DNA from: Acidobacteriota bacterium | Lineage (GTDB): Bacteria > Acidobacteriota > CAIWXX01 | NCBI GenBank assembly: GCA_040755995.1 | Contig: JBFMAF010000008.1 | Coordinates: 64,001 to 128,000, forward strand | Direction of reading: 5' to 3' | DNA length: 64,000 nt | Part shown: positions 7,531 through 27,632 of the stretch, piece after piece | Layout of the letters: every line of letters starts with the position of its first letter | Position numbering within the stretch: position 1 is the stretch's first letter | Notes under the pieces: model-generated | Databases searched by the model: none | The model's input: only the letters and a program-made list of their open reading frames with translations | Told to the model about the DNA's origin: nothing | Translations under genes and position numbers: made by a program

Positions 7531-7884
7531 TCAGTAGCTGTGCGTGCCCAGGATGACCTGGATGCCGAACTTGCTCTCGAGCGTGGGCTTCAGCGCCTCG
7601 AAGTCGATCGGGCACTGCGCCGTCTCCATCGCCAGCTTGACGCAGGTGCCGAGGTGAAGCACCTCGATCGGCCGCCCGAGGTTTTTCGTCAACTCGTTCA
7701 GCAGCTTCACACGCGGGACGGCGAGTCCCGGGCAGTCGCCGCAGTCCGTCATCGCAACTAGCTCGATTGTATCGTGGCGAGCGTACTCGCCGTTCTTCTC
7801 GGCCATCCCCTTGAAGCACTTCGCGCAGGCGATGCACGAGTGATCCTGGATTCTCCTGCAGTACAACACAGCTATTCTCGCCAC
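7531..7884 (-). CDS. CGGC-domain metal-binding protein
   Basis: C...CIACAKC...CGDCPG...HLGTC...C...GTH pattern; AGGAGG SD before GTG. Confidence 0.85.
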   Translation of the reverse strand: MARIAVLYCRRIQDHSCIACAKCFKGMAEKNGEYARHDTIELVAMTDCGDCPGLAVPRVKLLNELTKNLGRPIEVLHLGTCVKLAMETAQCPIDFEALKPTLESKFGIQVILGTHSY

Positions 7885-7892
7885 GGAACCTC

Positions 7893-8354: not shown

Positions 8355-8373
8355 CACGCCCACCCCGCCCGAA

Positions 8374-10227: not shown

Positions 10228-10278
10228 CTGGCTACTCCCCGACCTGTCTCCGCCCCGCCGGTGAATCGACTGGCCGAT

Positions 10279-11649: not shown

Positions 11650-11719
11650 CGCCGCCTCCACCGGGCCTTCGAAAATCGACGCTGGACGACGCGCCACCGG
11701 GCGTATGGTGCGGGGTCTC

Positions 11720-12460
11720 TCACGAGTGGCTCGGGTGAAATGCCCATATCGTGGCGATACCGGCCAGCATGAGGGCGAACTGCAGAATCGATTCGGCCGG
11801 ACGTTTCTTTCCCCGGCGTCCCGGAATGAGGTCAGCCAGGGCGATGTAGATGAAGCTTGCCGCCGAAAGCGCGAGCACATAGGGCGCCACAGCGAGTATG
11901 GAACGCGTGGCGAGGTAGGCCAGAACCGCACCGACCAGCGTGAACGAGCTGGAGAGACTGTTGTAGAGCATGGCCGAGGCGCGGCGGTAGCCCGAGTCCA
12001 CGAGGATCATGAAGTCACCGACCTCCTGCGGGATCTCGTGCGCGATTACTGCGATGGGTGTGGCGATGCCCAGATCTGTCGACGTGACGAAAGCCATCGT
12101 GATGGCGATTCCATCCACGAAGTTGTGGAACGCGTCTCCCACCAGCACCAGCGCACCTGCCGACGAATGAACGTCGCAATGCGGATCGTGGCAGTGCCTC
12201 CAGACCACCAGCTCCTCGAGGACGAAGAACAGCAGGATGCCGAACAGCACAGTTCGGAGTGTGGCGGGCCCGGAGAGCCGCTCCAGAGCGTATGGGATCA
12301 TGCCGATGAAGGCGGCTCCGAGCAGCGTGCCGGTCGCGTAGCTCACGACGTTCGGGACCAGCCATTGGCTCTTCCCGTCCTTGAATAGCAGCACTGCGCC
12401 CGCTATCAACACCGATCCGACACTCCCGAGCGCACTGAAGAGTATGATCATTCTCAGCAT
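11720..12460 (-). CDS. ZIP-family divalent metal transporter
   Basis: HNFVDG and HEIPQEVGD motifs, His-rich loop WRHCHDPHCDVH, multiple TM helices. Confidence 0.9.
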   Translation of the reverse strand: MLRMIILFSALGSVGSVLIAGAVLLFKDGKSQWLVPNVVSYATGTLLGAAFIGMIPYALERLSGPATLRTVLFGILLFFVLEELVVWRHCHDPHCDVHSSAGALVLVGDAFHNFVDGIAITMAFVTSTDLGIATPIAVIAHEIPQEVGDFMILVDSGYRRASAMLYNSLSSSFTLVGAVLAYLATRSILAVAPYVLALSAASFIYIALADLIPGRRGKKRPAESILQFALMLAGIATIWAFHPSHS

Positions 12461-12687
12461 GGGCTCACTCCGAACGATCGGCTCTCCTGCGTGCTCATCC
12501 CCTCGTGGAAGGTGGCCATCTCTTGAAGCGGTCTCGGTGGCACAGCCTCTTTCCCACAACGTGGCCATAGCAGGAAACGCGCCAACCCCAGTCGACCGCG
12601 TGATCTGAGTGCCTTCTCTCGATGAATCTCCGGGTTGCGGTCGTGACCTGGGCGTTGCCGACGCGTGCGGGGTCGCATCGCCGCCAC

Positions 12688-13248
12688 TCACTCGGCAGAT
12701 CGAGTCGCTCCAGTGCGACTTCGCTGGACCTCGACCATTGCACCTGCGAGATACCTTGCGGCTAGACTGACGTAGAGGTCCTTCGCCCAGTGGGTCATTG
12801 GGGCGTGACGCTCGTTCACCTCGCCGGTGACCCTCGCCGGCACGCCCACCGCAATCCTGCGGGGCGGGATCTTCTGGCTGTTCTTGACCAGGGTCATTTC
12901 ACCAACTATGGCGCCCTCTCCCACCTCAGAGAAGTCGCTCACCACCGCGCGCATGCCGATGACGGCACCATCCCTGATCGTGGCGTTGTGGATCATGGCG
13001 CCGTGGCCGACGGTGACCCGCTTGCCGATCCGCGTGCAGTCCTCGGGCCGGGCGTGCACGATGACCCCTTCCTCGACGGCGGTCTCATCCCCGATCTCTA
13101 TGGAACCGTAATCGCCGCGCAAGATAGCGCCGTGCCCGATGTAGCAGCTCTCACCGATCGTCACTCTCCCAATGATCTGCGCAGAGGGGGATACATAGGC
13201 GCTTCCGGCGATGTCAGGGTGGCGTTCCTCGAAAGCGTAGACTGGCAT
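12688..13248 (-). CDS. Gamma carbonic anhydrase family protein
   Basis: Hexapeptide repeats, LRGD, VH and VTVGHGAMIH zinc histidines. Confidence 0.9.
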   Translation of the reverse strand: MPVYAFEERHPDIAGSAYVSPSAQIIGRVTIGESCYIGHGAILRGDYGSIEIGDETAVEEGVIVHARPEDCTRIGKRVTVGHGAMIHNATIRDGAVIGMRAVVSDFSEVGEGAIVGEMTLVKNSQKIPPRRIAVGVPARVTGEVNERHAPMTHWAKDLYVSLAARYLAGAMVEVQRSRTGATRSAE

Positions 13249-13315
13249 TGTTCATCCTTTCCATCAAAGCGGCTCTTTGCATTGGATCAAGTCCAGATGC
13301 GTTTCACATCATACT

Positions 13316-13483
13316 TCAAACCTCCAGAGATCGGCCCCTCATCGCCACCCTGCCCATCGCCTCATACAGCACGGGAACCACAATCAGGCGCAGGTGGAAG
13401 GCAAAGGGGAACCCGCCGAGGTAGACGACGGCCTGCGGCCTGTGCAACTCGGCGCCGGTAGACCTTGTGAGGGCGAGTGGCAA
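13316..13483 (-). pseudogene. Remnant duplicate of the cusA/czcA 3' end
   Basis: Translates LPLALTRSTGAELHRPQAVVYLGGFPFAFHLRLIVVPVLYEAMGRVAMRGRSLEV*, versus LPLALTRSTGAELHRPLAVVYIGGFLFAILLRLIVVPVLYEAMGKVALRRKGPEA* at 19608-19775. Confidence 0.9.
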
Positions 13484-13489
13484 CGAGCT

Positions 13490-15757
13490 TCAATCGAAGC
13501 TGTATTCCAGCTTGGCGAAGAACGTTCTCATGTAGCGCGGGCCGTAGACGTAGCCGGCGTCTCTGTCCGGTCCCCGGTCCAGATCAGACTGGAATTGATC
13601 GAAAAGGTTGCTCACTCCCGCAGTGAGCCGCACTTTGGCCCTGCCTGAGGGATCTGCCCACAAATCCCTTGCGCCCGTCAGATCAAGGACATAGAAAGAA
13701 GGCGTTTCCTCCAGCCGGCTAGCCTGGATGTATCCGGCGTAGTGCGGGACAAGCATTCTTCCGGTATACTGCAGCCTTCCGGATATGTTCGTTTTTGTCC
13801 TGCTCTCGTAATAGTCGGCAGAAAGGTACCCGTATGTCTCGGGTGTCCTGAAGAATGACCTTTGATTGAAATCAGGTTCAGGATGATCGTACAGCCCCTG
13901 CTCCCAGGTGAATCCTGCTGCGAATCCCAGCTTCTCACCGATCTCGATCCTTGTAGCGATTTCAACTCCGTAGCTCCTTGCAGCGCCGGCGTTTATTCTC
14001 TGGAACACAAGCTCATCGTCTCCGGAGTGCAGAGGCTGGAGTGCAAAGGCATCCCTGAGCCTCGTATAGAACCCCGTTACGGCGACTGATTGAGTCATTG
14101 TCTCTCCCGCTGTCCAGTTGTTCTGGAGACCCGCACTGTAGCTTGTGGAAGACTCCTCTCTGAGCGTTGGATCGTTGATTATGATCGCACCTTGGCCTCC
14201 GACCTGAGTGATATGCAGGTCCTCGTCAAAGACCTTCGGGGCGCAGAATCCGCGGGAGACTGCCGCCCTGAGTCTCCAGCTGTCGCTGAGTGAGATCATC
14301 ACGTTGCCGCGGGGGCTCATGACTGTCTTGTTCAATACATTGGGCCTGTCCAACCGAAGCCCGCCTACAACGGTGACTCGATTGCCCAGAGTGATTTCAT
14401 CCTGAACGAAAACTCCGGTGTTCGTGTACACGTCGTCAATGACTCTGTCATAAGCAAGAGCCTCGTCTTTCAGCCATTCACGATCCAATGCGAGGCCGGC
14501 AACAAGATAGTGTTTCTCAATCTGATGGTGCAGAACCGCCTCGAAATTGACCAGAGGGTTGGTCGACTTTCCATACGCATTCGGATCCATGTTGGAACCA
14601 TAATAGGAATCTCTTCTTGTATAGGCAAAGGCCATGGAAGTTTCGTAGAAGCTTTTGCCCGAAAGGAGCTGTCTCCATCGTGCTCTCCCGCCATATCGCA
14701 GAGTATCGGCTGCCTCTGCGGTCAAGGCCTCATGGGGAGGAAGATCGAGCCTGTCTCCACCTCTGCGGTCCTCGTGAAATCTGTGAATATCAACAGTGAG
14801 CTGGCCCTTGTTCGCCAGCAGATCCTGGAAGAATCGAACGCCGAAGGCTTCAAGCTTCTTGTATCCCATATCCGAGAATCCGTCCCCGTCTCTGTCAATC
14901 GGGGCCACCCGGTCCACCTTTCCGAAGCCGAGTATCCCCGTATCCCCGGACGAATTCACAGCAGAAAACAGGCCGGAGCCAAGACACTCCGGCCTCCCGT
15001 TCTGCCACCCCTGCTGATAACTCATCCGGAACATCGTTTCCTCCGGGTTCTTCCCCACGATGTTAACCACCCCCGCGACAGCTGAAGCTCCGAATAGCGC
15101 GGAGCCCCCACCCTTCACAACCTCGATCTGCTGTATCATCTCCGGTGGAATCTGCTCAAGCCCGTATACGAGCGCAAGAGAGCTCAGCGAAGGACTGCCG
15201 TCAAGAAGCACCTGAGTGTAGCGTCCCTCAAGTCCGTTCAGTCGGATGTGGGTTATGTTGCAGTTCTGGCATGCGTTTTCTACTCTGACTCCGGTTACTG
15301 CCGTGAAAGCGTCTGAGACCGTTCTAACCAGAGGTGAAGCCAGCTCTCTGCTGCTGATGACTTCTGTCCTCACGGGCACATCCGCAAGAACTACCTCCCT
15401 CCTGGTTCCGGTAACCACTATTGCATCAGAAACCGCTTCCTTCTTGGTAAGTTCGATTAGTATCTCCTGAATGCCATCTCCTGCCAGAGACAACGGCGGG
15501 CATTCGCTCAGATAGTACCCTTCCATAAAGGCTTCGAGAGTGTACGTTCCGCCAGGCACTTCTGCAAAGCAGAAGTCCCCGTTTCTATCGGTCGACACAA
15601 CTCTACCTAACGGCTTCAGTATTACATCCGCCGAACAGACAGGACTTCCGTCTTTTCCTGCTGTGACTCGGCCTCTGATCGTCCCTGCGCCGCAGAGGCC
15701 TACGCAGCAGAATACGAGAATCGCGCAAACGAAAAGCTGAACACATTGCCTACTCAT
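13490..15757 (-). CDS. TonB-dependent receptor with N-terminal carboxypeptidase-regulatory-like domain and plug CxxC
   Basis: Signal peptide, IVVTGTR TonB box, ENACQNC plug, IEVVKGGGSALFG, C-terminal YVYGP..EYSFD; visibly lower GC than its flanks. Confidence 0.92.
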   Translation of the reverse strand: MSRQCVQLFVCAILVFCCVGLCGAGTIRGRVTAGKDGSPVCSADVILKPLGRVVSTDRNGDFCFAEVPGGTYTLEAFMEGYYLSECPPLSLAGDGIQEILIELTKKEAVSDAIVVTGTRREVVLADVPVRTEVISSRELASPLVRTVSDAFTAVTGVRVENACQNCNITHIRLNGLEGRYTQVLLDGSPSLSSLALVYGLEQIPPEMIQQIEVVKGGGSALFGASAVAGVVNIVGKNPEETMFRMSYQQGWQNGRPECLGSGLFSAVNSSGDTGILGFGKVDRVAPIDRDGDGFSDMGYKKLEAFGVRFFQDLLANKGQLTVDIHRFHEDRRGGDRLDLPPHEALTAEAADTLRYGGRARWRQLLSGKSFYETSMAFAYTRRDSYYGSNMDPNAYGKSTNPLVNFEAVLHHQIEKHYLVAGLALDREWLKDEALAYDRVIDDVYTNTGVFVQDEITLGNRVTVVGGLRLDRPNVLNKTVMSPRGNVMISLSDSWRLRAAVSRGFCAPKVFDEDLHITQVGGQGAIIINDPTLREESSTSYSAGLQNNWTAGETMTQSVAVTGFYTRLRDAFALQPLHSGDDELVFQRINAGAARSYGVEIATRIEIGEKLGFAAGFTWEQGLYDHPEPDFNQRSFFRTPETYGYLSADYYESRTKTNISGRLQYTGRMLVPHYAGYIQASRLEETPSFYVLDLTGARDLWADPSGRAKVRLTAGVSNLFDQFQSDLDRGPDRDAGYVYGPRYMRTFFAKLEYSFD

Positions 15758-16029
15758 AGTTCTCTCCAGGTCTGATTACGGTATGCAGAATCGGTCACAC
15801 GGTATTGATGAAGCCAACGCGCCCCGATGCGATGGCGCGGTTTGCAGCATGTCAGGACGTCGCGGAGTGGGTCGGCGCCTTGGACATCCGAATCGATGTT
15901 GATCCAGGGCCGCCCAAGCGCACCGGCTTGATCAGCCCTCACCAGGCAAGGCTCGTTTTGCTCGCTGCCCGACCGCATTAACGGGTTCGAGCCCGGCGCC
16001 AGCAAGACGCACTCCACGAATGACATCAC
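15754..16029 (-). pseudogene. Degenerate 5' remnant of the tolC/cusC gene, still an open 91-codon ORF coupled to the TBDR
   Basis: SFVECVLLAPGSNPLMRSGSEQNEPCLVRADQAGALGRPWINIDSDVQ aligns ungapped (24/48 identical, by hand) with SLADCVSLALARNPLVRSAGEMYRASLARIQQAKALPQPSIDIDSDLQ of 24068..25324; GGAGG SD; ATGA overlap with the TBDR. Confidence 0.75.
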
Positions 16030-16100
16030 TGCACCTCCCCACGAACGTCGACGTACGAGAGTGTACTAACTGAACGAAACGAAATGAGCAGAGGGGGGCT

Positions 16101-16373
16101 TCAGGCGAGAGGAGGCGAGCGGGATAGCGGAATAATCAGCCATGCGCGGCGGGGCACAGAGAAGACCACCGGCTGCAGCATTTCCACTACAACCAGCTGG
16201 CACGGAGGACTCAGGTTCACCTGATGAGGCGTTCCGATCGACTGGCCGTAGTTGCATGCCGGACAGTGGTCGTTTGAAGAGATGCTTTCTTCTGTGTGCG
16301 AGAAATTGACGGACGCCAGGACGAACAGGAACAGAGCCAGGAAACCCGCCACAGCCCATCTGTTTTGCCTCAC
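16101..16373 (-). CDS. Putative metal-sensing arrest/leader peptide, copy 1 (DUF2946/CruR-like)
   Basis: 90 aa: hydrophobic N-terminus, SHTEE, HCPAC, C-terminal SRSPPLA*; paralog of 19134 and 25404; GGAG SD. Confidence 0.8.
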   Translation of the reverse strand: MRQNRWAVAGFLALFLFVLASVNFSHTEESISSNDHCPACNYGQSIGTPHQVNLSPPCQLVVVEMLQPVVFSVPRRAWLIIPLSRSPPLA

Positions 16374-16558
16374 CAGATACACTCCCATCGCCAATCTACG
16401 CCAGAGGTCGGCCGGAATTCAGGATGATACGCGGCATACCGTCGAGCCGCGTTGGGGGCGGAAGTAGGCGGCGCTTGGGCTCGACGCGGAACGTCGTCGC
16501 CCGTCCATGTGGCATCTGCCGCCAGCCAGCCTTCGTGCTGCCAGTGTCCTTGCATCTC

Positions 16559-16611
16559 TATAATGACAGTGACTCTCATTTTCATTATACAACAACTGCG
16601 AAACCTGTCAA
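16559..16611 (-). promoter_or_regulatory. Consensus sigma70 promoter overlapped by a Fur-family-like box
   Basis: Minus strand TTGACA-N16-TATAAT; TATAATGA-N15-TCATTATA inverted repeat with inner 9-1-9 AATGACAGT-G-ACTCTCATT. Confidence 0.75.
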
Positions 16612-16693
16612 CACGCTACTGGCGAGGCGCGGCCTCAGACTCGCGAAGCATGCATCGTTCTGACGGCTGCGCCTCGCCTCGACAGTGGAAGGC

Positions 16694-18976
16694 CTAGAAA
16701 AGAAGTCTAAGTGTCAGCCGTGTGTTCCGGCCTGCGCTGAGAGCGTATTGCTTATACGTGTCCAGGAAATCCTTGTACGACTTGTTGGCCAGATTGCCGA
16801 TCCAGAGATCGATGCAGAGCACGCTCTTCCCAAGTTCCCGTTTCCCGCCGGCCGCCAGGTCAAAAAGAACGTAGCTTTCCGTATCCAGGGGGAAGGGTTC
16901 GTCTGGGCCAGCGATTGTTCCCCTCCCGGTCCAGGTAGAGCGGAGCTCAACGAAGGGGCTCGACCAACTCCCCACTGCGAAGTCGTGGATCCGAACACTG
17001 AAACCGGCACGGACTGGGGGCGTGAAAGGGAGGCGCTTACCGGTATCGTCGTTATGGGTCTGCAGGGTTTCACCCAGTGCACGCAGGGACAGAAATGGCG
17101 TGGCGTCCATCTCGATCCTGCCCTCCACCCCGCTGACGACAGCGTCGCTTTGGTCAAACGTGCTCACCGGAAGGCCCCCGATCGTCTCGCCGGTCAGCCG
17201 GAGATAGATGTAGTTTGCGAATACAGCGCGATAAACAGCCACCGATCCCCGCACTCGCTCGTGATCGCATCGGAGCGTGAATTCGGTGTTGAGGTTGGTT
17301 TCCTCCTGGAGATTCGGGTTGCCTTTCTCGTAGAGCTGCACCCCGTCGTGCGGTCCGTTGGCGAAGAGCTCGAACTCCGAGGGATTTCGCCAACCCCGGC
17401 TGATGCTGACACCAGTGGAAATGACCCGATTGAAACGATACACGACTCCCGCACCCCCGGTCAACGCCTGATAGGTTTTCTCAAACTTGTCGGGAATGCT
17501 CAGTATGGTGTCCGCCGGCACATCCAGGGTCCGGCGGTCGATGCGGAGCCCCGCGTTGAGGGTCCAGTGATCGAACTTCTCCCTTCGGCCGAAGCCGGCT
17601 TCCTCGAAAACCATGGCTGACCATGTCCTGTTTTCGTAATAGGGCAGTAGCTTGACCGGGCCGAACGTTTCATTGCTTTGGCGGCTATGTTCCAGTCGAA
17701 CGACGCCCCGCGCCAGCGGACCCACTGGATTATGCTGGAAAGATGCCCGGTACAACTGGGTGTCGAGCTCGAGATCCACTTTTGCCCCATGGCTCCGCCC
17801 CAGGGGGAACGCGCGGCGGATGTTCCGGGAAAGATTGGCGTCCAACTGCAGCAGTCCCCACGTCGCAGGCAGGGAGGCAGCCACACCACCAATCTCGTTT
17901 TGGAGGCCCAGACGGAAATTCGGCTGGAGTGGAATGTAGAACCCCAAGTCGTTTTGCCAATGCCGGAAATGCCCTGTGACCATCATGCCTTTCTCGGACT
18001 GATAACCGCCTTCCAGCGAAGCGGATTGCTGATCGTAGTCGGTGTTGGGGAGGTCTCCGGCCGGCGTTCCCATGTTGCCCGTTGCCCGGTGCGTCAGTGA
18101 GGCGCGCCCGGCGAAGCCTGCGCGGCCACCATCGATCTGTGCGTGGAGGATCTTGGCTCCGTTGACACCAGCGTATCCAAGGATACCTTCCCCGCTGAAC
18201 ACCGGCCGATCATCCACCGGGAATGGGAGCGGCGCGGAGACTAGATTGACGACACCACCGATGGCCTGCGTTCCGTACAGCACGCTGGCAGGCCCGCTGA
18301 CGACTTCGATGCGATCGGCCTCGTAGGGTTCGATGTTCGCCATGTGTCGGCGGCTGAACTGGAAATAGTCATGGAAAATACCGTTGCTGAGGACCCGGAT
18401 GCGTTCATTGGTCTGGCCCCTGATCATCGGGACACCACTTGCATCTCCGGTGGATATGTTGCGCACACCCGGAACATCCTTGATCGCCTCCCCGATTGAG
18501 AGTCCTGAACGGGTGCGGACGCTTCCGGCATCGACCGCGTACGTAGTTTGCGCCACAGCCAGACTTTCCGCCTTCCATGGAGCGGCGGTCACGGTAACGG
18601 ATTCGGAAATGACAGGCAACGGCCGGGCGGCCAGCTGAATTTCAGCAGCAGAGGGAACTTCAATCCTGAACTGTTCCGGCACGAACTTCGCACTGGACAG
18701 GGCCAACGTGAACTGCCCCGGAGGGATATCTGCAAAACTGAACCGGCCTTCGGAGTCGGTAAGCGTCGACAAACCCAGCTCGGCCAACTCAACCGTAATG
18801 CCGGCGACCGGGTCCCCCGTACCCGCTCGGACCACGCGACCGAAGACCTCGGAACCGGACTCCTCTGCCAACAGCGTCAATGGTGTGAACACCGAGAGAA
18901 GCGCGGCACCAGTGCAAAAGAAGAGTACAATCGCAATCCTAGCTGTCGATGGATCTCTTGCAAACCTAAGTGACAT
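16694..18976 (-). CDS. TonB-dependent receptor
   Basis: Signal peptide, N-terminal carboxypeptidase-like domain, ESVTVTA TonB box, PMIRG, IEVVSGPASVLYG, ELFANGPH, terminal Phe. Confidence 0.92.
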   Translation of the reverse strand: MSLRFARDPSTARIAIVLFFCTGAALLSVFTPLTLLAEESGSEVFGRVVRAGTGDPVAGITVELAELGLSTLTDSEGRFSFADIPPGQFTLALSSAKFVPEQFRIEVPSAAEIQLAARPLPVISESVTVTAAPWKAESLAVAQTTYAVDAGSVRTRSGLSIGEAIKDVPGVRNISTGDASGVPMIRGQTNERIRVLSNGIFHDYFQFSRRHMANIEPYEADRIEVVSGPASVLYGTQAIGGVVNLVSAPLPFPVDDRPVFSGEGILGYAGVNGAKILHAQIDGGRAGFAGRASLTHRATGNMGTPAGDLPNTDYDQQSASLEGGYQSEKGMMVTGHFRHWQNDLGFYIPLQPNFRLGLQNEIGGVAASLPATWGLLQLDANLSRNIRRAFPLGRSHGAKVDLELDTQLYRASFQHNPVGPLARGVVRLEHSRQSNETFGPVKLLPYYENRTWSAMVFEEAGFGRREKFDHWTLNAGLRIDRRTLDVPADTILSIPDKFEKTYQALTGGAGVVYRFNRVISTGVSISRGWRNPSEFELFANGPHDGVQLYEKGNPNLQEETNLNTEFTLRCDHERVRGSVAVYRAVFANYIYLRLTGETIGGLPVSTFDQSDAVVSGVEGRIEMDATPFLSLRALGETLQTHNDDTGKRLPFTPPVRAGFSVRIHDFAVGSWSSPFVELRSTWTGRGTIAGPDEPFPLDTESYVLFDLAAGGKRELGKSVLCIDLWIGNLANKSYKDFLDTYKQYALSAGRNTRLTLRLLF

Positions 18977-19133
18977 GGTTGCCTCCTGTGTCAATCATTC
19001 TGGTGACACAATTAAAGTATCGTCAGTTCTTTCATTATGAAGATGCTCATCCCCCACACTTCTGTACGCCTCCCCTGAAACGGCGGGGTACAAGTATGTT
19101 GGCTAAGCGAAACCGGACGAGCAGGCGGAGGGG

Positions 19134-19406
19134 TCAGGCGGGGGGAGGTGAGCGGGAGATGGGCACGACGACAGCTGCCTGGCGAGGCGGTGGCATCCCG
19201 ATCTGCCCTAGCAGTTCCACCACGTCCAGTTGCCATGGTGGGCTCAGGTCCACATCCTGAGCCGTACCGAGCGACTGGCAATAGATGCAGGCGGGACAGT
19301 CGTCGTTCGCGCAGATGTCCTTTTCTGTGTGCGAGGCATCGACGGAAGCCAGGACGAACAAGAACGCGGCCAGGAAGGACGCAATGGCCCATCTGTTTCG
19401 GCCCAT
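19134..19406 (-). CDS. Putative metal-sensing arrest/leader peptide, copy 2
   Basis: 90 aa: hydrophobic N-terminus, SHTEK, DCPACIYC, C-terminal SRSPPPA*; GGAG SD. Confidence 0.8.
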   Translation of the reverse strand: MGRNRWAIASFLAAFLFVLASVDASHTEKDICANDDCPACIYCQSLGTAQDVDLSPPWQLDVVELLGQIGMPPPRQAAVVVPISRSPPPA

Positions 19407-19607
19407 CACGCGCACTCCATTTGAATCAGATTTCGCCCCTTCCTTGGCTGCCTCGAACGGCAGGCGCTTTTCGCAATGGACATGGTGAGGGGAAGAGGTG
19501 ATGAGCTATGCCGGTGCCGTTCAGCTTCACCACATGTCACCGCGTCCACTGCATGACTGAATCACGATACCCTGTGGCTACAGAGTCCATAGCAGCCACC
19601 GCCTCCT

Positions 19608-22600
19608 TCATGCCTCGGGCCCCTTGCGTCTCAACGCCACCTTGCCCATCGCCTCGTACAGCACGGGAACCACGATCAGGCGCAGGAGAATCGCGAAGAG
19701 GAAGCCGCCGATGTAGACGACGGCCAGCGGCCTGTGTAGCTCCGCCCCGGTGGATCTTGTCAAGGCGAGCGGCAGAACGCCCATGATCATTACCACGTCG
19801 GTGAGAAAGATCGGCCTGAACTTTGTCAGCGCCCCCTGCAGCACGGCCTCACGCAGCGCGAGTCCCTGCTTCACGAGGCCGTTGATCTTGGCCACCAGAA
19901 TCACGTCGTTCTGAACACAGATGCCGAAGAGAGCGATCAGGCCTATGGTGGAGGAGACGTTGATGGTCTGTCCTGTCACCCAGAGCGCAAGGATTCCACC
20001 GATCAAGGTCGAGGGGATGTTCAAGACGATCAGCAGCGACTGCCAGATCGATCCCAGCGAGGAGAACAGTATCACGAAGACGATCAGGATCACGATGATC
20101 ATGACGTAGGTGAGGTGCCTCATCGCGCGCTGCTGGCCTTCGAACTGGCCCCCGAACGTGACGAAGTAGCCGGGTGGCAGGAGCACATCCTCGGAGATCC
20201 TCCTCCGCGCATCTTCCACAAAGCTCCCGATGTCCCGCCCGATGACGTTGCACAGGATGATCTTCCGCCGCATGAGGTTTTCGCGGAGGATAGTCTGAGG
20301 CCCCTCGCTCCTGCTGATCGTCGCGAGGTCTGCGAGTGGGATTCGTACTCCGGACGGCGTGTCCACCAGAAGGCTGCGGATGGCGTCCTCGTCGTTGCGA
20401 TACTGATCAGGCAGGCGTATCAACACGGATGTCACCCTGTCCTCTTCGTAGACGTCCGTGACTTCGATCCCGTTCAGCGCGGTCTCGATCAGGTCGGCAA
20501 TCTGGCCGACGGGGATGCCATGCCTGCCGAGCTCCTGCCGCTCCAGCTGGATGACGAGCTGAGGCACGCCGGTGGTCTGCTCGATCTGGAGATCTGCCAC
20601 CCCGTCGATCTCTGCTATCACACCGCGGATCTCCTTGATCTTCTCGGTCAGAACCGCAAGGTTCGGCCCGAAGAGCTTGACGGAGAGCTGGCCCTCGGTT
20701 CCGGTTAGCATCTCGGCGAGCTTGTTGGCGATCGGCTGCTCGAAGATGTAGGCGATGCCCGGCAGCTTGTCCAGCTCGGTTCGCATCGCCTCGATGACCT
20801 CTTCGATGCTCCGTTCCCGGCCCTCCTGGGGCAGGAGCTGGATGTTATAGTGACTGTGGCCGACCGGGTGCAGATGCTCGGATGCCTCGGCCGTGCCCGT
20901 CATTCTCGAAACCGACACCACCTCGGGGAAAGACATGAAAATCGACTCGATCTTGGTCCCCATCTTCACCGATTCCTCGAGCGAAGTCTCCGGCAGCATC
21001 ACGGTGGACGCCATGATGGCACCCTCGTCCAAAGGCGGTACGAACTCCTTGCCGAGGAAGTGGAGTCCGATTCCTGCCACCGCGATGAGCAGCAGGAACG
21101 CCGTGATGATCTTGCCCTTGTGATCGAGCGCTCGAAGCAGAAGTGACCGGTAGGCGGAGGCCAAGCCGACGATCATCGGGTTGGGCCTGTTCTTGAGAGA
21201 GCCCCGGCTCAGGAGAACGGCCGCCAGAATGGGCTGCAGCGTCAGATTCAGAATCATCGCACCGAAAAGCGCCCCGGCCACGGCGAAGGCGGTCGGATGG
21301 AACATCGCGCCCTCGATACCCTGGAGCGTCAGGAGCGGCACAAAGACCAGGATGATGATCAAACTCGCAGAAAAGAGGTAGCTTCCCACCTCCCTGGCCG
21401 CCGCCGAAACCAGTTCGGTGCCGGAGCGTGAGGAGCGGCCGGTGTTCTCCTGGAGTATCCTGACGATGTTCTCGACCATGATGATGGACCCGTTGGCCAT
21501 CTTTCCGATTCCGATGGCGAGACCGCCGATGGACATGACGGTCAACTTGATCCCGAAGAGGTCCATGAGCACCAGCGCGATCAGGATGGAAAAAGGGATC
21601 GTGAGGGATGCGATGAGGGAGCTGCGCACGTTCCACATGAAGAACATCATCACGAGGATGATGAGGATCGCCCCTTCCAGGATCGAAATCTCCAGGTGCT
21701 CAATAGATCTGACGATCAAGATCGATTGGTCATAGAAGGGCTTGATGGTGATGTTCCTGGGCAGGTCCCTGGAGACTTGCGCGATCGCGTTCTTGATGTT
21801 CGCGATGGCGTTGAGGGTGTCCCCGCCATACTGCTTCTCGACGGTGACGTAGACAGCCTCCTTCCCATTGTGCCCCGCCGACTCGCGCCTGAACTTGCTC
21901 CCGATCTTCACCTCCGCCACGTCCTTCACGAAGACGGGCACATTGTCGCGCGACGTGATGAGGGTGTTCTGGATGTGATCGAGGGTCTCCATCCGGCCCA
22001 GCCCCTTGATAAGTATCTCCTGGGACCCCTTCGAGATGATCCCTCCCGAGAAGTTGCGATTGTTGGCCCCGATCGCCTCCCTGACCTCCTCGATCGTTAT
22101 GTCATAGTGCGTGAGCATGTCCGGCTTGAGATAGACCTGGTATTGTTTGATGAACCCGCCGAGATTGATGATGAAGGCCATGCCGGGCACACCCTGCAGC
22201 CGGTAGCGCACCGTCCAGTCGGCCACGGAGCGAAGCTCGAGCGGATCTGCACCTTCCCCGACGACCGCGAACTCGAAGACCTCGCCCATCCGCGACGAGA
22301 CCGGGCCGAGAATCGGCTCGGTCGTTCCAACCGGCAGGCGCCCCGCAATCAGCTCCAACTTGCTCGCGACGATCTGCCGCGCCAGGTAGATGTCCGTGTC
22401 CCAGTCGAATTCGACCGTGACCACCGAATCGCCCGTCGCCGATTCGGACCGCACCCGAGTCACGTGCGGCGCCCCGGACATGAGGCTCTCGAGCGGAAAC
22501 GATATCAACCGCTCGACGTCCTCAGAGGCCATCCCGGGGTTCTCGGTGATGATGGTTACGAGCGGCGCATTGAGGTCAGGGTAGATATCCTTTGGGATTC

Positions 22601-22697
22601 GTATGTAGACAACGACCCCCCAGATGCAGACAAGGAGCAGCAGGAGGACCGTGAGCAGCTTGTGTCTGAGAGAGAAATCGATCAGGCGGCCGATCAT
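19608..22697 (-). CDS. CusA/CzcA-family heavy-metal RND efflux permease
   Basis: 1029 aa; DIYPDL, EDVERLISFPLE, GGFIKQYQV, GKEFVPPLDEG, FEQPI, FGGQFE and RPLAVVYIGG motifs. Confidence 0.93.
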   Translation of the reverse strand: MIGRLIDFSLRHKLLTVLLLLLVCIWGVVVYIRIPKDIYPDLNAPLVTIITENPGMASEDVERLISFPLESLMSGAPHVTRVRSESATGDSVVTVEFDWDTDIYLARQIVASKLELIAGRLPVGTTEPILGPVSSRMGEVFEFAVVGEGADPLELRSVADWTVRYRLQGVPGMAFIINLGGFIKQYQVYLKPDMLTHYDITIEEVREAIGANNRNFSGGIISKGSQEILIKGLGRMETLDHIQNTLITSRDNVPVFVKDVAEVKIGSKFRRESAGHNGKEAVYVTVEKQYGGDTLNAIANIKNAIAQVSRDLPRNITIKPFYDQSILIVRSIEHLEISILEGAILIILVMMFFMWNVRSSLIASLTIPFSILIALVLMDLFGIKLTVMSIGGLAIGIGKMANGSIIMVENIVRILQENTGRSSRSGTELVSAAAREVGSYLFSASLIIILVFVPLLTLQGIEGAMFHPTAFAVAGALFGAMILNLTLQPILAAVLLSRGSLKNRPNPMIVGLASAYRSLLLRALDHKGKIITAFLLLIAVAGIGLHFLGKEFVPPLDEGAIMASTVMLPETSLEESVKMGTKIESIFMSFPEVVSVSRMTGTAEASEHLHPVGHSHYNIQLLPQEGRERSIEEVIEAMRTELDKLPGIAYIFEQPIANKLAEMLTGTEGQLSVKLFGPNLAVLTEKIKEIRGVIAEIDGVADLQIEQTTGVPQLVIQLERQELGRHGIPVGQIADLIETALNGIEVTDVYEEDRVTSVLIRLPDQYRNDEDAIRSLLVDTPSGVRIPLADLATISRSEGPQTILRENLMRRKIILCNVIGRDIGSFVEDARRRISEDVLLPPGYFVTFGGQFEGQQRAMRHLTYVMIIVILIVFVILFSSLGSIWQSLLIVLNIPSTLIGGILALWVTGQTINVSSTIGLIALFGICVQNDVILVAKINGLVKQGLALREAVLQGALTKFRPIFLTDVVMIMGVLPLALTRSTGAELHRPLAVVYIGGFLFAILLRLIVVPVLYEAMGKVALRRKGPEA

Positions 22698-22712
22698 TCG
22701 CTCTTCCCCGCC

Positions 22713-24068
22713 TCAGTGAACATGGGCCTGTTTCAGCTCCTCATCCAGGAGCTTGCTCTTGAGCTGGTAGCTGCCGGCGGTCACGACCTTCTCTCCCGGC
22801 TCGATCCCGTCGAGGATCTCGTAGAAGCCGTTCTCCCTGCAGCCGACAGCTACGGCCCTCGGCTCGAACCCTCCGTCGACACTCAGAAAGACCATCTTCT
22901 CGCCACGGTCGTCCAGCACAGCCTCCACCGGCAGCGCCAGAACCTCTGTCGGCTGGTCAAGGTAGATCGTAACGTCGGCGAACATCCCGGCCTTCAGCTG
23001 CTGGCCTCTGTTGTCGACCTGAGTGCGCATGGTGATGGTCCGCGTGTCCTCCTTCAGGACGTCGCCGACGTACGTCACGCGGCCCTCGAATCTCTCTGCC
23101 GGATACGCAGGCACCGAAACCTGGACCTCCTGCCCCACTCGGATTCTCGACACATCTCTCTCGTAGATCTCCGCATCGATCCAGAGAACGGTCGGGTCCA
23201 TGATGACGAAGATCTCCGTGGTCTGGTCCACCATGCCGCCCAGAATAGCCTTGGTGTCGATGACCTTGCCGCTCAACGGAGAGTGCAGGGTGATCACGGC
23301 ATTGATCTGGTGGCTCTTGTCCATCTCCAAAACTTGTGCCTCGGTGAAGCCCAGCACATGGAGCTTCTTCTCCGCTGCATTCAACGTAGCCTCCGCCGCC
23401 TTGAATGAGGCCTCGCTCTGCAACACGTCCTTCTCGGCACCCACGCCGCGATTGAACAGCAGGCGCTCGCGCTCGAGGCTCCGATTCGCCAGCTCGTGGT
23501 CCGCTCTCGCCTTGTAGAACTCGGACCTGGCGTTGCCAACCTCCTCGCTCTCGAGCGTCACCAGCTCCTGTCCCGCCCTCACCCAATCGCCGAGGGACAC
23601 GTGGATCTCCGAAACCCTGGCAGAGAAAGCGTAGCTGACGATGGCCTTCTTCTTCTGCGGAATGAGGACCTTCCCCATCGCCTTGAGCTGCGAGCGCATC
23701 GGCCGCCGCCCGACCTCGGCGGTCTTGATCTCGACTGCCCCTTGCTCAGCCTCGGAAAGCTCCACCAGCGGCACCGCATCGTGCTGCCATCCACGGCCCC
23801 ATCGCCGGCTATGGCGGTGAGCGGCGTCACGGAGCGCGCCGGCGGCGTTGTTCAATGCCTGTGTCTGCCCGGACACGGGTTGGACTGTCTCCTTCTCGGA
23901 GGACGCGGCCTGCCCGGTCCGCGCGACCCCGTTCGTTGTTCTCGTACATCCAGGAGCAGCCGCACACGTGGCCAGCACGGCCAGGATGTGAACCACACGC
24001 GGGACCTGATGCAAGGCGTTGCGGTCCGAGCGGGATATCATGGATTTGAAACCAGAATTCCTATTCAT
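22713..24068 (-). CDS. RND periplasmic adaptor (CusB/CzcB-like)
   Basis: LGDWVRAGQEL, SPLSGKV, LKAGMFA and GEKVVTAGSY motifs; C-terminal HVH. Confidence 0.9.
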   Translation of the reverse strand: MNRNSGFKSMISRSDRNALHQVPRVVHILAVLATCAAAPGCTRTTNGVARTGQAASSEKETVQPVSGQTQALNNAAGALRDAAHRHSRRWGRGWQHDAVPLVELSEAEQGAVEIKTAEVGRRPMRSQLKAMGKVLIPQKKKAIVSYAFSARVSEIHVSLGDWVRAGQELVTLESEEVGNARSEFYKARADHELANRSLERERLLFNRGVGAEKDVLQSEASFKAAEATLNAAEKKLHVLGFTEAQVLEMDKSHQINAVITLHSPLSGKVIDTKAILGGMVDQTTEIFVIMDPTVLWIDAEIYERDVSRIRVGQEVQVSVPAYPAERFEGRVTYVGDVLKEDTRTITMRTQVDNRGQQLKAGMFADVTIYLDQPTEVLALPVEAVLDDRGEKMVFLSVDGGFEPRAVAVGCRENGFYEILDGIEPGEKVVTAGSYQLKSKLLDEELKQAHVH

Positions 24069-25324
24069 TAATCATCTCCTACTTGTGGCTCGCCAACCGC
24101 CCTCTCCAGCGCAGCCAGCGCCACCGAATACTCGGAACGGGAGTCCGCGTAGGACTTGCGTGTTTCGATCAGCGTCCGCCGGGACTCGATCAAGTCAATG
24201 CCTGCCGCGCCGCCGTGAAGGTAGCTGAACAGCAGCATGTCATACGCCTCCTCGGCCTGCGACAGCATTTCCTCCTCGAAGAGCGCTATCTGCTCGGCGG
24301 CGGACGCGGCGCTCCGATACGCATCCTCCACCTCCAGAGAGATCAGGTTCAGCGTGTGCTCCGCTTCGCGCCTCGCCGCCTCAAGGTTCGCCTCCGCCTC
24401 GCGGACCTCACCTCTCTTCGGCTGCCAGAAGAACAGCGGCACGGGGAACGAGATCGCGAAGTCCCACGTCGACTCCTCTCCCGCGATCCGGTGGCGAGAC
24501 AGCCCCACATCGAAATCGGGCAGATAGCTCAGATACCCCTGCTTGCGCCGGAGCGTTTCCTTTTCTACGGAGGCCTGCGCTCGCCGCGCCTCCGGCCGAG
24601 ACGCAGAGGCTCTCTGCCTGAGCTCTTCGACGGGTGGAATCTCTGCCCTCGGCTTGAACTCCCCGTCAATCTCCAGAGGATCGTCGGTACCTCTGGCCAG
24701 CAAGTAGTTGAGGCGGGCCTTCGCGAGCCTGATGTCGCGCATGGCAGCTTGAGCGGTGTTGGCTGCCTTTGACGCTTCCACCCGCGCCCGAAGGACCTCC
24801 ACTCTGGGCGCATCCCCGGCCTCGAACTTCACCCTCGTCTTGTCGAGAAAATCGTTGGCAAGATCGCGGTCCTCCTCGCTGTGACGCAGCTTCTCCATGG
24901 CGAGGAGAAGCCCGTAGAAGGCCTCCTTGATCTCGTATGTGATCTGCAATCTCCACAGGTCAAGATCGGCGAGTGCCTCCTGGGATTCTCGAACGGCTAT
25001 CCCGCCACGGGTTGCGCGTTTCCCCGGAAACTCGAATGTCTGGGAGATACCGAGATAGGACTCTCCTGAGTGGCCAAGCTGGAAAGGGCCGGGCTGGAGA
25101 TCCGAATCGATGTCGATCGACGGCTGTGGCAGCGCCTTCGCCTGTTGAATCCTCGCCAACGATGCCCGGTACATCTCCCCGGCCGATCGGACCAGCGGAT
25201 TCCTTGCGAGCGCCAGCGAGACGCAATCCGCGAGGGACAACCGCTGAGGCGTGCCCTCGCCATGAAGAACCGCCGCCGGTACGACTTGGGCCAATAATAG
25301 TAGACAAACAGCTACCCGCTGCAC
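24068..25324 (-). CDS. TolC-family outer membrane efflux protein (CusC/CzcC-like)
   Basis: Signal peptide, LSLADCVSLALARNP, two OEP repeats; AGGAGG SD before GTG. Confidence 0.9.
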   Translation of the reverse strand: MQRVAVCLLLLAQVVPAAVLHGEGTPQRLSLADCVSLALARNPLVRSAGEMYRASLARIQQAKALPQPSIDIDSDLQPGPFQLGHSGESYLGISQTFEFPGKRATRGGIAVRESQEALADLDLWRLQITYEIKEAFYGLLLAMEKLRHSEEDRDLANDFLDKTRVKFEAGDAPRVEVLRARVEASKAANTAQAAMRDIRLAKARLNYLLARGTDDPLEIDGEFKPRAEIPPVEELRQRASASRPEARRAQASVEKETLRRKQGYLSYLPDFDVGLSRHRIAGEESTWDFAISFPVPLFFWQPKRGEVREAEANLEAARREAEHTLNLISLEVEDAYRSAASAAEQIALFEEEMLSQAEEAYDMLLFSYLHGGAAGIDLIESRRTLIETRKSYADSRSEYSVALAALERAVGEPQVGDD

Positions 25325-25403
25325 TTCTATACACCTCCTGGAAAAGCGTGATGAACGAGATGTAACTGTCTCTGGTGACCCGATCTACGGGCGAAAGGAG
25401 GCT

Positions 25404-25685
25404 TCAGAAAGTGGGAGGCGAGCGGGAGAGCGGAGCGAACAGAACGGCCTGACAGTGCCAGCTAACCTCGACGGGCTCCAGCTGTTCGACCACAGCCAGT
25501 CGACAGGCCGGTATGATGTCAGCGTGCTGGGCTGTTGCCAGTGACTGGCCGTAGACTCCAGCAGGGCACTGGTCGTTGTCATTGGAGCTGATGTACTCCT
25601 CGGTGTGAGACAGGTTGACGCAGGCCAGAACGAAAACGAAGACGGCCAACGTGGGCCAATTCAACCACCTCGTTCGTCTCGTCAT
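25404..25685 (-). CDS. Putative metal-sensing arrest/leader peptide, copy 3
   Basis: 93 aa: hydrophobic N-terminus, SHTEE, QCPAG (second Cys absent), C-terminal SRSPPTF*; GGAG SD. Confidence 0.78.
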   Translation of the reverse strand: MTRRTRWLNWPTLAVFVFVLACVNLSHTEEYISSNDNDQCPAGVYGQSLATAQHADIIPACRLAVVEQLEPVEVSWHCQAVLFAPLSRSPPTF

Positions 25686-25784
25686 GCCTACTCCGGTAAC
25701 TACTCTACCCAACATCCGGCCAGGCCGTCAACGGAATTCTAGACTGTTGCAAGATGCTACACCTACTGCTATGCTTTGCCGCTG

Positions 25785-27122
25785 ATGGAGAAGCGGCTCG
25801 ACGCACGCCATTTCCCGCTGGTGCTCGACTTCGTTGAGCAGGGCATATTCACAGTGGATGAAAAGGGATGCATAACCTCGTTCAACCGGGCGGCGAAGGC
25901 CATAACCGGCTATTCGGAGGAAGACGTGCTGGGTCGGGAATGCTCCTCGGTGTTCAGGACGGAGCTATGCGACACGATCTGCCCGCTGCGGCGCAGCATC
26001 GCCTCCGGCGAGTACATCCGGAACCGCGAGGTGCGGATACACGCCAAGGACGGGCGGCGGATTCCGATCTCGATCAGCACGGCGCCTCTTCTTACCTCGT
26101 GGGGTACACTGCTGGGCGGGGTCGAGGTCTTCACCGATCTCTCGCACATCGCGGATCTGCAGCGGAAGCTCGATGGGCAGTACCAGTTCGAGGACATCGT
26201 CAGCCGCAATCCCGAGATGCACAAGATCTTCAAGATGCTCCCCCTCGTCGCTGAGAGCACCAGCACAATCCTCATCACGGGTGCCAGCGGCACCGGCAAG
26301 GAGCTCGTGGCGAAGGCGATCCACCATCATGGTCCCCGCAGCAAGCGCCCTTTTGTCGCTGTCAACTGCGCGGCGATACCGGAGACGCTTCTCGAATCAG
26401 AGCTCTTCGGCTACCGGCGCGGCGCGTTCACCGACGCAAAGCGCGACAGGGCGGGGAGAATCGCACAAGCCGAGGGCGGAACGCTGTTCGTCGACGAGGT
26501 GGGCGACCTGCCCAAACCCCTGCAGGTGAAGCTCCTCAGGTTCTTGCAGGACAAGACGTACGAACCACTCGGGTCCAACGTGGCCCAGCGCGCGAATGTG
26601 AGAGTGATCGCCGCGACGCATCGAGACTTGGAGGCGATGATGCGGGAAGGGCTTTTCCGAAAGGACCTGTACTTCCGTCTGAATATCCTGCAGATCGCGC
26701 TGCCGCCGCTCTCCAGGCGTCCGGAGGACATCCCGCTGCTCGCCCGCCATTTCGTCCAACGTTTCCGCCAGGCCACCGGCAAGGTCATCGAGGGGATCTC
26801 GCCGGAGGCGCTTGCCGCGCTGGTGCGTTACCCATTCCCAGGCAACGTGCGCGAACTGGAGAATCTCATCGAGCGCGCCTTCATCCTGTGCGAGAGGCCG
26901 GTGGTCGACCTGCGTGACCTGCCGCCGCATGTCGCGGCGGCGCTGAGCCGGGGCGCCGGGCCGGAGGCCGTAGATGAACACGGCGGGAGCCTGAATCGTG
27001 TAGAGATCGAGGCAATACAGCAGGCACTGAAAAGGCACGCAGGCAATCGCACACGCGCCGCGCGAGATCTCGGCATTCATCGCAGCACGCTCATCCGCAA
27101 GATCCATCGTTACCGGCTATGA
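25785..27122 (+). CDS. PAS-domain sigma54-dependent transcriptional activator (Fis family)
   Basis: PAS domain, GASGTGKE, ESELFG..GAFTDA, FVDEVGD, FPGNVREL and a C-terminal HTH. Confidence 0.93.
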   Translation: MEKRLDARHFPLVLDFVEQGIFTVDEKGCITSFNRAAKAITGYSEEDVLGRECSSVFRTELCDTICPLRRSIASGEYIRNREVRIHAKDGRRIPISISTAPLLTSWGTLLGGVEVFTDLSHIADLQRKLDGQYQFEDIVSRNPEMHKIFKMLPLVAESTSTILITGASGTGKELVAKAIHHHGPRSKRPFVAVNCAAIPETLLESELFGYRRGAFTDAKRDRAGRIAQAEGGTLFVDEVGDLPKPLQVKLLRFLQDKTYEPLGSNVAQRANVRVIAATHRDLEAMMREGLFRKDLYFRLNILQIALPPLSRRPEDIPLLARHFVQRFRQATGKVIEGISPEALAALVRYPFPGNVRELENLIERAFILCERPVVDLRDLPPHVAAALSRGAGPEAVDEHGGSLNRVEIEAIQQALKRHAGNRTRAARDLGIHRSTLIRKIHRYRL

Positions 27123-27125
27123 GGC

Positions 27126-27632
27126 ATGCTGCTGGAGGTGGTCAGGATGAACAGTCCCGCGAGTGCGACCGGAATCGTCGTCGACGTGCCCGGTCGAGGG
27201 CGGATCAGCATCGCCCGCGTCTTTCTCGACTTCACGGGCACACTCTCGGCTGACGGGCAACTGCTGACGGGAGTTGCCGAACGGCTCCGGCTGCTGGCGG
27301 CACAGGTGCCCATCACGGTTCTTACCGCCGACACGTTCGGCACGGCGAGGGAGGCCCTGATGGGACTCCCTGTCGAATTCCGGGAGATTCGAAACGGGGC
27401 TGAGAAGGAGCGCATAGTCCAGCAGTGCGCGCTGGCGGGATTCGCGGCCATCGGGAACGGCATGAACGATGTCGCCATGATCCGTGCCGCAGATCTCGGC
27501 ATAGCCGTGGTGGGGTCGGAAGGCGCGGCCAGCGAGCTTCTCCGAGTGGCTGGCGTGGTGGTCACGAACATCAACGATGCACTCGACCTGCTCCTCAAGC
27601 CGCTCCGCCTGAAGGCCACCCTGCGCGAGTAG
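27126..27632 (+). CDS. HAD-superfamily hydrolase (soluble P-type ATPase-like)
   Basis: LDFTGTL, LTADTFGT and IGNGMND motifs. Confidence 0.85.
   Translation: MLLEVVRMNSPASATGIVVDVPGRGRISIARVFLDFTGTLSADGQLLTGVAERLRLLAAQVPITVLTADTFGTAREALMGLPVEFREIRNGAEKERIVQQCALAGFAAIGNGMNDVAMIRAADLGIAVVGSEGAASELLRVAGVVVTNINDALDLLLKPLRLKATLRE

Follow-up and report, generated by a model that had tools for sequence, protein, structure and literature searches.

Why would three copies of one very small gene lie close together upstream of genes for metal transport? The question is raised by a 64,000-nucleotide stretch of Acidobacteriota DNA (contig JBFMAF010000008.1, positions 64,001 to 128,000; we call this whole stretch the window). 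It belongs to a 7.7 Mb genome, G000, that is 99.8% complete. Three short open reading frames (ORFs), which we call u1, u2 and u3 for leader copies 1, 2 and 3, lie on its minus strand:

16101..16373, minus strand: u1, GTG start, 90 residues, CPAC...RSPP; an anti-Shine-Dalgarno stretch (16109-16116) lies within its Ser-Pro-Pro codons
19134..19406, minus strand: u2, ATG start, 90 residues, CPAC...RSPP
25404..25685, minus strand: u3, ATG start, 93 residues, CPAG...RSPP; directly heads czcC

We argue that these are probably regulatory leaders of the CutF/CruR type, in which a stalled ribosome would free the Shine-Dalgarno (SD) sequence downstream. Copy 3 would act on the efflux operon czcCBA, and copies 1 and 2 would have arisen by duplication. 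That the leaders belong to a real regulatory family is well supported.

The three leaders and their family

u1, u2 and u3 are genuine genes under selection. The original prediction described three paralogous ORFs with one layout, and their coordinates, lengths and hydrophobic helices were confirmed. u2 is 60% and u3 56% identical to u1 in pairwise protein comparison, and SHTE, CPA(C/G), YxQS and SRSPPxx-stop are invariant. The Cys motif lies 44 residues before the Arg in each, and RSPP stands two residues ahead of the stop. Pairwise ratios of nonsynonymous to synonymous substitution rates (dN/dS) are 0.43 (u1 vs u2), 0.23 and 0.29, with dS near saturation for u3. The Kyte-Doolittle maximum over 19 residues is 1.7-2.1. 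An AlphaFold leader model has a helix at residues 4-24, a second at 38-46 and coil after residue 46 (pTM 0.38). Of the 137,403 stop-to-stop frames of G000, only five have both R[SAGPD]PP close to the stop and CxxC/G 44 residues ahead of it, so the combination in u1-u3 is not chance. The five are u1-u3, one RAPP-type leader on C23 and one apparently spurious frame. A hidden Markov model (HMM) built from u1-u3 found no fourth close copy in G000. The distant RAPP-type leader (C23:152881-153420, L007) has CATC at a spacing of 44 and precedes an outer-membrane-like protein without a name, then a solute-binding protein.

When 1.84 billion representatives were searched with the profile, 168 proteins matched at E<=0.001. 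The family comprises at least 168 clusters, mainly in the Acidobacteriota. Family counts draw on the 150 matches listed among them. The tally of tails covers 156, including the three window copies and leaving out the repeat protein P0026 as a false match. Tails are RSPP in 86, RAPP in 43, RGPP in 11, RPPP in 4, RDPP in 3 and absent in 9, and the spacing from CxxC to Arg is 44 in 131 of 143 members, counts that are biased because the seed HMM favours RSPP and a spacing of 44. The second position of R-x-P-P is limited to S, A, G, P or D in 147 of 147 tailed members, and the chain ends two residues past the prolines in 128 of them. What is conserved is R-x-P-P, and the RSPP first described is one state of it. 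These x residues match the set that is fully or partly permissive for arrest in ApdA (PMC12992588 section 7). A sub-branch ends in KSPP (L026, L031, L041, L183, L186, L187, L193; P0129, P0132, P0133, P0153), which contrasts with the irreplaceable Arg in the mutagenesis of ApdA and ApdP (PMC12992588).

In an alignment of 135 rows the His is kept in 134, the first Cys in 135, the second Cys in 130, the Arg in 131 and Pro-Pro in all 135. The 40 residues between Cys and Arg keep their length and not their sequence. SHTE holds for u1-u3, its "SH" being local: the family consensus is F-F-H-T-E, with I/V-N/D-F-F before the His. A hydrophobic helix is present and there is no small -1 residue before the His, and most members, with F-F ahead of H, appear to have an uncleaved anchor at the N-terminus.

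Is this family DUF2946? The Pfam gathering cut-off for DUF2946 (PF11162) is 23.7 bits, which u1 misses at 14 bits (E 0.085), and u2 and u3 have no match to it. DUF2946 is the commonest Pfam match of the family, with 24 of the 135 at E<=1, the best at E 3.4e-4 and all below the cut-off. The spacing of CxxC to RxPP published for DUF2946 is 45 +/- 1-2 (PMC9426467). The 44 of all three leaders falls within it, and CxxC itself is found in u1 and u2 (CPAC) and not in u3 (CPAG). All have a predicted N-terminal transmembrane segment; u1 and u3 hold the first operon position and u2 is possibly internal. A likeness to DUF2946, proposed for checking in the original prediction, thus appears in the spacing and in the CxxC of u1 and u2, and fails at the Pfam threshold. 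Acidobacteriota proteins that match DUF2946 (L199, L200 (over the Pfam cut-off) and L201) have a spacing of 44 and score 4-22 bits on the family HMM, and an Atlas cluster, 54% DUF2946, scored 0.95. The filters for CutF-like proteins are fewer than 150 residues, Pro-Pro no more than 15 residues from the C terminus and a same-strand next gene within 1,000 nucleotides (PMC9973294), and the leaders pass them. By the testable filters the family appears CutF-like, and by the Pfam threshold it is not a member of DUF2946. The literature search turned up nothing about this branch, nor about its stall codons acting as the anti-SD, though subscription papers and supplementary member tables may include members.

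It is worth considering what stands behind the leaders elsewhere. In the discovery set 47 of 401 genomes of the phylum matched, giving 49 loci besides the window, 48 of them with a downstream ORF. The first downstream gene is a TonB receptor at 15 loci and probably so at 2 more, OEP at 12, a cation diffusion facilitator at 1, a leucine-rich-repeat protein at 1 and familyless at 17. ZnuA/ABC-3-type genes come after 13 of the 17 familyless genes. CzcA-like genes are found at 12 of 12 OEP loci, and seven of these are 66-80% identical to the window pump. The held-out set consists of the classes of G226 (95 of 201 genomes matched) and G158 (9 of 101). Ninety-one of the listed loci were examined. 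Four matches, which lacked a tail or an ORF downstream, and 2 duplicates were excluded; 88 distinct leaders make up the set. These precede czcC (45), receptors like TBDR1, the TonB-dependent receptor (TBDR) downstream of u1 (35), an operon of an outer-membrane protein with znu genes (4), a weak TBDR match (2) or an unassigned gene (2). Metal-transport classes therefore stand behind 84 of the 88. The proposals of a divergent CruR/CutF-type family, and of homologues enriched before metal transporters, are both supported.

A secreted family of 360-465 residues with no Pfam or NCBIfam match opens leader-headed ZnuA/ABC-3 operons (L082, L084, L086-L088, L092, L093, L097, L099, L100, L007); it is probably an outer-membrane metal porin. 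At L053 and L094 what follows the leader is not a transport gene: one of the two encodes a leucine-rich-repeat protein and the other is an unassigned ORF. In another genome P0020 joins a leader in frame to two short CzcA-subfamily fragments, a collapsed leader-czcCBA operon resembling the relics of this window.

One can imagine that the peptides instead monitor secretion or disulfide status, or are small membrane metal-binding proteins and not ribosome-borne metal sensors. Most downstream genes do encode envelope proteins that require Sec, the RAPP peptides ApdA and ApdP monitor protein export, the CutF model includes disulfides (bioRxiv 10.1101/2025.02.05.636593), and the second Cys is Gly in 8 of 54 exporter leaders. 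However, the downstream genes are almost solely metal transporters, and the His and Cys are invariant. The middle of the peptide is conserved in the manner of a spacer, and the model is coil beyond residue 46. We consider this alternative very improbable.

Stall codons and the next Shine-Dalgarno sequence

The original prediction omitted a feature of the stall site, as it did the relics of czcC and czcA described below. Family-wide, the Pro-Pro codons and their neighbours are complementary to the SD of the next ORF, 40-100 nucleotides downstream; in the held-out set the median gaps are 66 and 92 nucleotides. The cassettes of u1-u3 are alike for about 75 nucleotides beyond the stop, up to the SD and start codon. 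At 28 of 49 loci CCT encodes the first Pro, vs 10.1 expected from local usage, and the other leader Pro codons are CCT in 56 of 281 cases. Cognate duplexes of stall site and SD sum to -606 kcal over 40 of the 52 loci (12 were omitted because the start is uncertain), vs -528 +/- 15 kcal for GC-binned swaps, and none of 20,000 swaps was as low. The signal is strongest over the stall codons (z -3.6, -4.0 and -2.9), with upstream windows within +/-2.3, and it stays when one locus is sampled per family (26 families, z -3.0 to -5.4). For importers the covariation is given as z -5.3, and as -3.9 held-out, the latter value being reached twice over 32 clusters. The held-out test used 83 leaders, after 7 were dropped, in 66 clusters at 70%. 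Masking the stall site cuts the predicted cost of opening the SD from 10.1 to 8.1, from 15.9 to 9.0 and from 10.8 to 3.5 kcal in the three copies. All RNA folding values here are equilibrium predictions.

Since the Pro-Pro codons are the anti-SD of the next gene, stalling would turn that gene on. This predicted polarity is well supported for importers and weakly for exporters, and a reversal for exporters was not seen in either locus set. We propose the following mechanism. As in CruR, the ribosome would come to a pause when the first Pro occupies its P site; it would then cover the anti-SD and free the downstream SD, so that the next ORF is switched on. At the pause 61 residues would separate the His from the P site and 50 the Cys, which would place both at the translocon exit or past it. 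A span of 50-61 residues is about the length of the ribosomal tunnel plus the translocon. Periplasmic metal sensing may thus be geometrically possible. Metal bound at the His and Cys would alter the duration of the pause, with Ni, Co or Zn likelier than Cu. We infer arrest, SD release, metal binding and the sign of the response, while the genes, their motifs, selection, context and complementarity can be read directly from the DNA.

Several points weigh against this reading, beside the bias of the family counts. Exporter covariation is weak (z -1.6, n=11; held-out -1.4 and -2.0, n=34), and one upstream control window reaches z -2.7 in held-out importers. The stalling gain of u1 is just 2 kcal. 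Taken singly, the window copies give no strong signal: the synonymous test has p 0.05 in u1, with little tuning in u3 (p 0.19) and none in u2 (p 0.44), and whole-region folding is unexceptional (z -0.35, -1.9 and -1.7). u3 has Gly for its second Cys. RSPP is only partly permissive in ApdA and ApdP, and RxPP alone is insufficient for arrest.

Could control be transcriptional, and the SD pairing just a side effect of Pro codons being rich in C? Among DUF2946 proteins CruR is the best studied, and it acts via Rho, which the stalled ribosome blocks (PMC9426467). Partial pairing with an SD is a property of any CCN-CCN, post-stop regions are pyrimidine-rich, and exporter covariation is weak. Even so, the swaps hold Pro-Pro and an SD as well, and the cognate pairs beat these GC-matched swaps. 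CCT is enriched at the first Pro, and the gaps are short vs the 162 nucleotides of cruR. Transcriptional control through Rho seems improbable here, and we prefer release of the SD.

What might set exporters apart? In 17 genome-matched pairs the stalling gain has medians of 3.1 and 3.8 kcal, a difference that is not significant (p 0.28), and the stalled state is more closed in exporters (7.2 vs 4.9 kcal, p 0.0005). A smaller stalling gain for exporters was rejected: it appears in unpaired comparisons (1.8 vs 6.9 kcal, p 0.03; 0.7 vs 4.9 kcal, p 0.003) and is gone in the 17 pairs. Opening of exporters by a terminating ribosome, through a second anti-SD after the stop, was also rejected (p 0.37 and 0.99; paired post-stop duplex p 0.31). 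So was CPAG as a sign switch: it occurs in 8 of 54 exporter leaders, 7 of them one clade, and 46 retain CxxC. A His after CxxC (18/34 vs 9/32, p 0.049 with kinship ignored) was rejected as a determinant of sign. On a 52-row tree the importer/exporter label is unclustered (12 changes vs 13.9 shuffled). On a 102-row tree it is clustered with repeated changes (11 vs 34 shuffled, at least 3 forced). Both trees rest on few columns. No alignment column separates exporter from importer leaders, so the sign of the response cannot be read from the sequences. Because the RNA switch has no reversal between importers and exporters, an opposite metal response would need the peptide or transcription, or else both units respond alike.

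Duplication history and the metal genes

How did one window come to hold three copies? The features around them are these:

25702..25731, minus strand: sigma70-like site before u3, weak (9/12), alone no better than chance
25333..25339, minus strand: SD of czcC, for which two pairing partners are predicted, the Pro-Pro codons (weight 0.43) and a second anti-SD just past the u3 stop (0.57)
24068..25324, minus strand: czcC-like outer-membrane factor (OEP)
22713..24068, minus strand: czcB-like periplasmic adaptor
19608..22697, minus strand: CzcA/ZneA-like heavy-metal resistance-nodulation-division (RND) pump, with a His-rich site EHLHPVxHSH, Lys/Asn in transmembrane segment (TM) 4 and Asp in TM10-11
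19012..19059, minus strand: 15-codon ORF, opened by a GTG and an SD (19069-19075) that correspond by homology to those of czcC; its end lies 36 nucleotides short of TBDR2
16694..18976, minus strand: TBDR2, TonB-dependent receptor with its own SD, ATG at 18976
16616..16692, minus strand: REP-like palindromic repeat of about 70 nucleotides, flanked by TBDR2 and the promoter of u1; blastn gives 37 matches over many G000 contigs
16584..16611, minus strand: sigma70 promoter of the u1 unit, perfect (12/12)
16559..16589, minus strand: inverted-repeat operator candidate, an 8-15-8 dyad overlapping the -10, unique in G000
15754..16029, minus strand: 91-codon relic ORF, a decayed czcC 5' end joined to an unrelated tail; preceded by an SD (16034-16040), and closed by a TGA that overlaps the ATG of TBDR1
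13490..15757, minus strand: TBDR1, a TonB-dependent receptor whose plug carries a CxxC motif
13305..13482, minus strand: czcA 3' relic, matching CzcA residues 975-1028 (80% in protein, 79% in DNA over 178 nucleotides), immediately past the TBDR1 stop

The original prediction put each leader first ahead of a metal transport unit. This holds directly for u3, with czcC starting 79 nucleotides past its stop, but u1 is followed by the czcC relic and u2 by the 15-codon ORF. The frame of that ORF is open back to 19392 (19012-19392, 126 codons) and overlaps nearly all of u2, probably by chance. Residues 2-51 of the 91-codon ORF are 48% identical to CzcC (E 4.5e-7), without the signal peptide, and the DNA is 65% identical over 162 nucleotides (15864-16025). 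This match is why we reject it as an independent gene. With relics of czcC and czcA on either side of TBDR1, unit 1 is a second copy of leader-czcCBA in which TBDR1 has taken the place of the interior. u1-u3 form one clade (support 100/99 and 100 on two trees) with u1 and u2 as sisters, and the similarity of the u2 and u3 cassettes stops at the czcC start codon. As read from these remains, copies 1 and 2 are duplicates of the pump's control cassette. The leader was not reused three times in independent recruitments, as had been proposed; an exporter cassette was duplicated locally. There is no promoter-like site or terminator between u2 and czcA, so u2 may lie inside the copy-3 transcript, internal to that of u3.

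Copy 3 would act on czcCBA in the way described above. TBDR1 starts 344 nucleotides downstream of u1 and would probably be reached by translational coupling, since the stop of the czcC relic overlaps its start. For TBDR2 any coupling would be loose at best and would run through the 15-codon ORF. The relic has a dN/dS of 0.62, and its 106-nucleotide tail stays open in 28% of shuffles, both of which count against coupling. That the relic should end exactly on the TBDR1 start is less likely by chance than this 28%.

The more serious alternative is that copy 3 is the sole working switch here, and that u1 and u2 are leftovers of duplication, with the receptors under their own promoter or operator and SD. 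The SD paired by u1 and u2 serves the relic and the 15-codon ORF; each receptor has a separate SD of its own, predicted to be weakly structured. u1 has a perfect promoter and an operator-like dyad, and czc relics lie on either side of TBDR1, the czcC one with its dN/dS of 0.62. Nevertheless, u1 and u2 retain every family motif, including the CxxC lost in u3, and they held a dN/dS of 0.43 while the adjacent czcC copy decayed. Their pairing with the SD is kept with differing sequences. The orthologues of TBDR1 (30-42% identical) are directly headed by leaders at 8 discovery loci and behind 35 held-out leaders, and the stop of the relic overlaps the TBDR1 start. We judge it unlikely, if deserving of weight, that u1 and u2 are leftovers, and we keep to all three copies as leaders.

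The inner 19-mer of the u1 dyad scores 14/16 against a Fur-type consensus, and the dyad resembles Fur or NikR sites. If it is such an operator, it would add metal repression at transcription. The dyad has no second copy in G000. A shared upstream operator was rejected: no dyad is enriched over the 52 loci, and the Fur-like score is high for u1 and L077 only. On the other side of u3 a divergent PAS/sigma-54 activator and a HAD-like gene (25776-27632) start about 90 nucleotides from the u3 start, and no sigma-54 promoter was found there by eye.

Which metal is handled? The pump had been labelled cusCBA. It is closer to ZneA/CzcA (571 bits) than to CusA (545 bits), with a His-rich loop at the CusA PLEM (Met site) position and Asn at the TM4 Asp, so cusCBA was a mislabel. 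The best solved relative of TBDR2 is ZnuD (E 2e-24), and no close solved structure was found for TBDR1. nikR, a ZIP gene and FmdE are further hints in the window. With low confidence, Ni, Co or Zn appears more likely than Cu.

The window pump and its relatives at L064, L065, L066, L067, L069 and L073 (66-80% identical) form a CzcA subfamily with G-K-x-A-N in TM4, Q-N-D in TM10 and T-D in TM11. The TM4 motif stands at the position of the CusA Asp, and those of TM10 and TM11 at the positions of Lys/Asn and Thr in AcrB-type pumps. The proton-relay charges of the subfamily look swapped between the two pseudo-symmetric repeats. Downstream on the same strand (4074-12691) a cluster of metal and redox genes comprises a gamma carbonic anhydrase, the ZIP transporter, an NAD(P)H oxidoreductase, an aldehyde ferredoxin oxidoreductase, a 4Fe-4S protein, NikR, a third TonB receptor and FmdE. 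Relatives of the third receptor also precede a leader in L073, L074, L138 and L140.

There are 17 genomes that carry one receptor-heading and one pump-heading leader, and in G556, G476 and G537 leader-TBDR1-leader-czcCBA stand in tandem. One leader type with one polarity might switch on the CxxC-plug receptor and the atypical His-rich RND pump under the same metal condition, as a single functional module in place of an importer and an exporter under opposite control. Its cassette would be portable, a new gene being inserted behind a decayed stub that serves as a translational relay. This reading is allowed by the shared RNA polarity, the tandem loci, the 17 genomes, the lack of a separating residue and the overlap of relic stop and TBDR1 start, and we regard it as doubtful. 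If true, the module could serve metal exchange or removal of a competitor in starvation, or the receptor could serve detoxification.

Comparison with known systems

Leader genes that precede receptors as well as efflux pumps have been published for CutF-like proteins (PMC9973294), and CC2720 is one that precedes an efflux operon (PMC4176598), so the heading of both importers and an exporter, which the original prediction did not recognise as described, is not new. Among 5,334 CutF-like proteins OEP (CusC/CzcC) is the commonest neighbour and TonB receptors come next (PMC9973294). The general mechanism and the range over import and export being known, what this analysis adds is the anti-SD within the Pro-Pro codons and the origin of the triple by local duplication.

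CutF of Rhodobacter capsulatus (PMC9973294; 10.1101/2025.02.05.636593) is likewise a small exported leader with a Cys motif, a Pro-Pro tail and a short gap, and a stall opens a structure that hides the next SD, as prediction and covariation suggest here. It differs in having CxxxC and PPP, whereas these leaders have CxxC with an upstream His and RSPP. In most of them the N-terminus resembles an uncleaved anchor, and their anti-SD lies in the stall codons while that of CutF is in an intergenic stem-loop. The family is mainly from Acidobacteriota, a word missing from the main text of PMC9973294.

CruR (Bp2923, DUF2946/PF11162) of Bordetella pertussis (PMC9426467) also has CxxC about 45 residues before an RxPP near the C terminus, an export signal, first place before a TonB receptor and a stall that means on. 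Arrest with the two Pro in the P and A sites is reported in PMC12992588, and CruR functions without its signal peptide (PMC9426467). It is about 145 residues long vs 90 here and works through Rho, with Cu relieving the arrest and triggering termination; the evidence here points to SD masking. Its neighbours are Cu-type and ours Zn/Ni/Co-type, and this family is dominated by RSPP and falls below the Pfam cut-off.

CC2720, a DUF2946 protein, heads czrCBA in Caulobacter (PMC4176598), and with Cupriavidus CzcI, CusD and SilD (PMC9973294) it shares the position of a small leader-like gene heading a heavy-metal RND operon. CzcI is without a proline tail, and the cited sources describe no receptor-heading paralogue of these. 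The literature compared also includes 10.1101/072470. ApdA and ApdP share the R-x-P-P core, and SecM, MifM and VemP a stall-opened SD; RSPP is among the upstream ORF motifs clustered with RAPP (PMC12992588, PMC7897499, PMC10987492). These peptides differ in monitoring protein export and in having no His/CxxC, and no SD-hiding hairpin is predicted for ApdA or ApdP in these papers.

The family would offer natural candidates for RSPP arrest, a motif represented so far mainly by partly active mutants and library hits. It would extend such leaders to probable Ni/Co/Zn handling in the Acidobacteriota, and its visible history is that of a switch spreading through duplication. In CruR metal relieves the stall and uptake goes off, while in CutF metal causes the stall and detoxification goes on, so a shared architecture carries opposite signs. 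u1-u3 and the 17 genomes with both types are matched pairs in which to ask what sets the sign.

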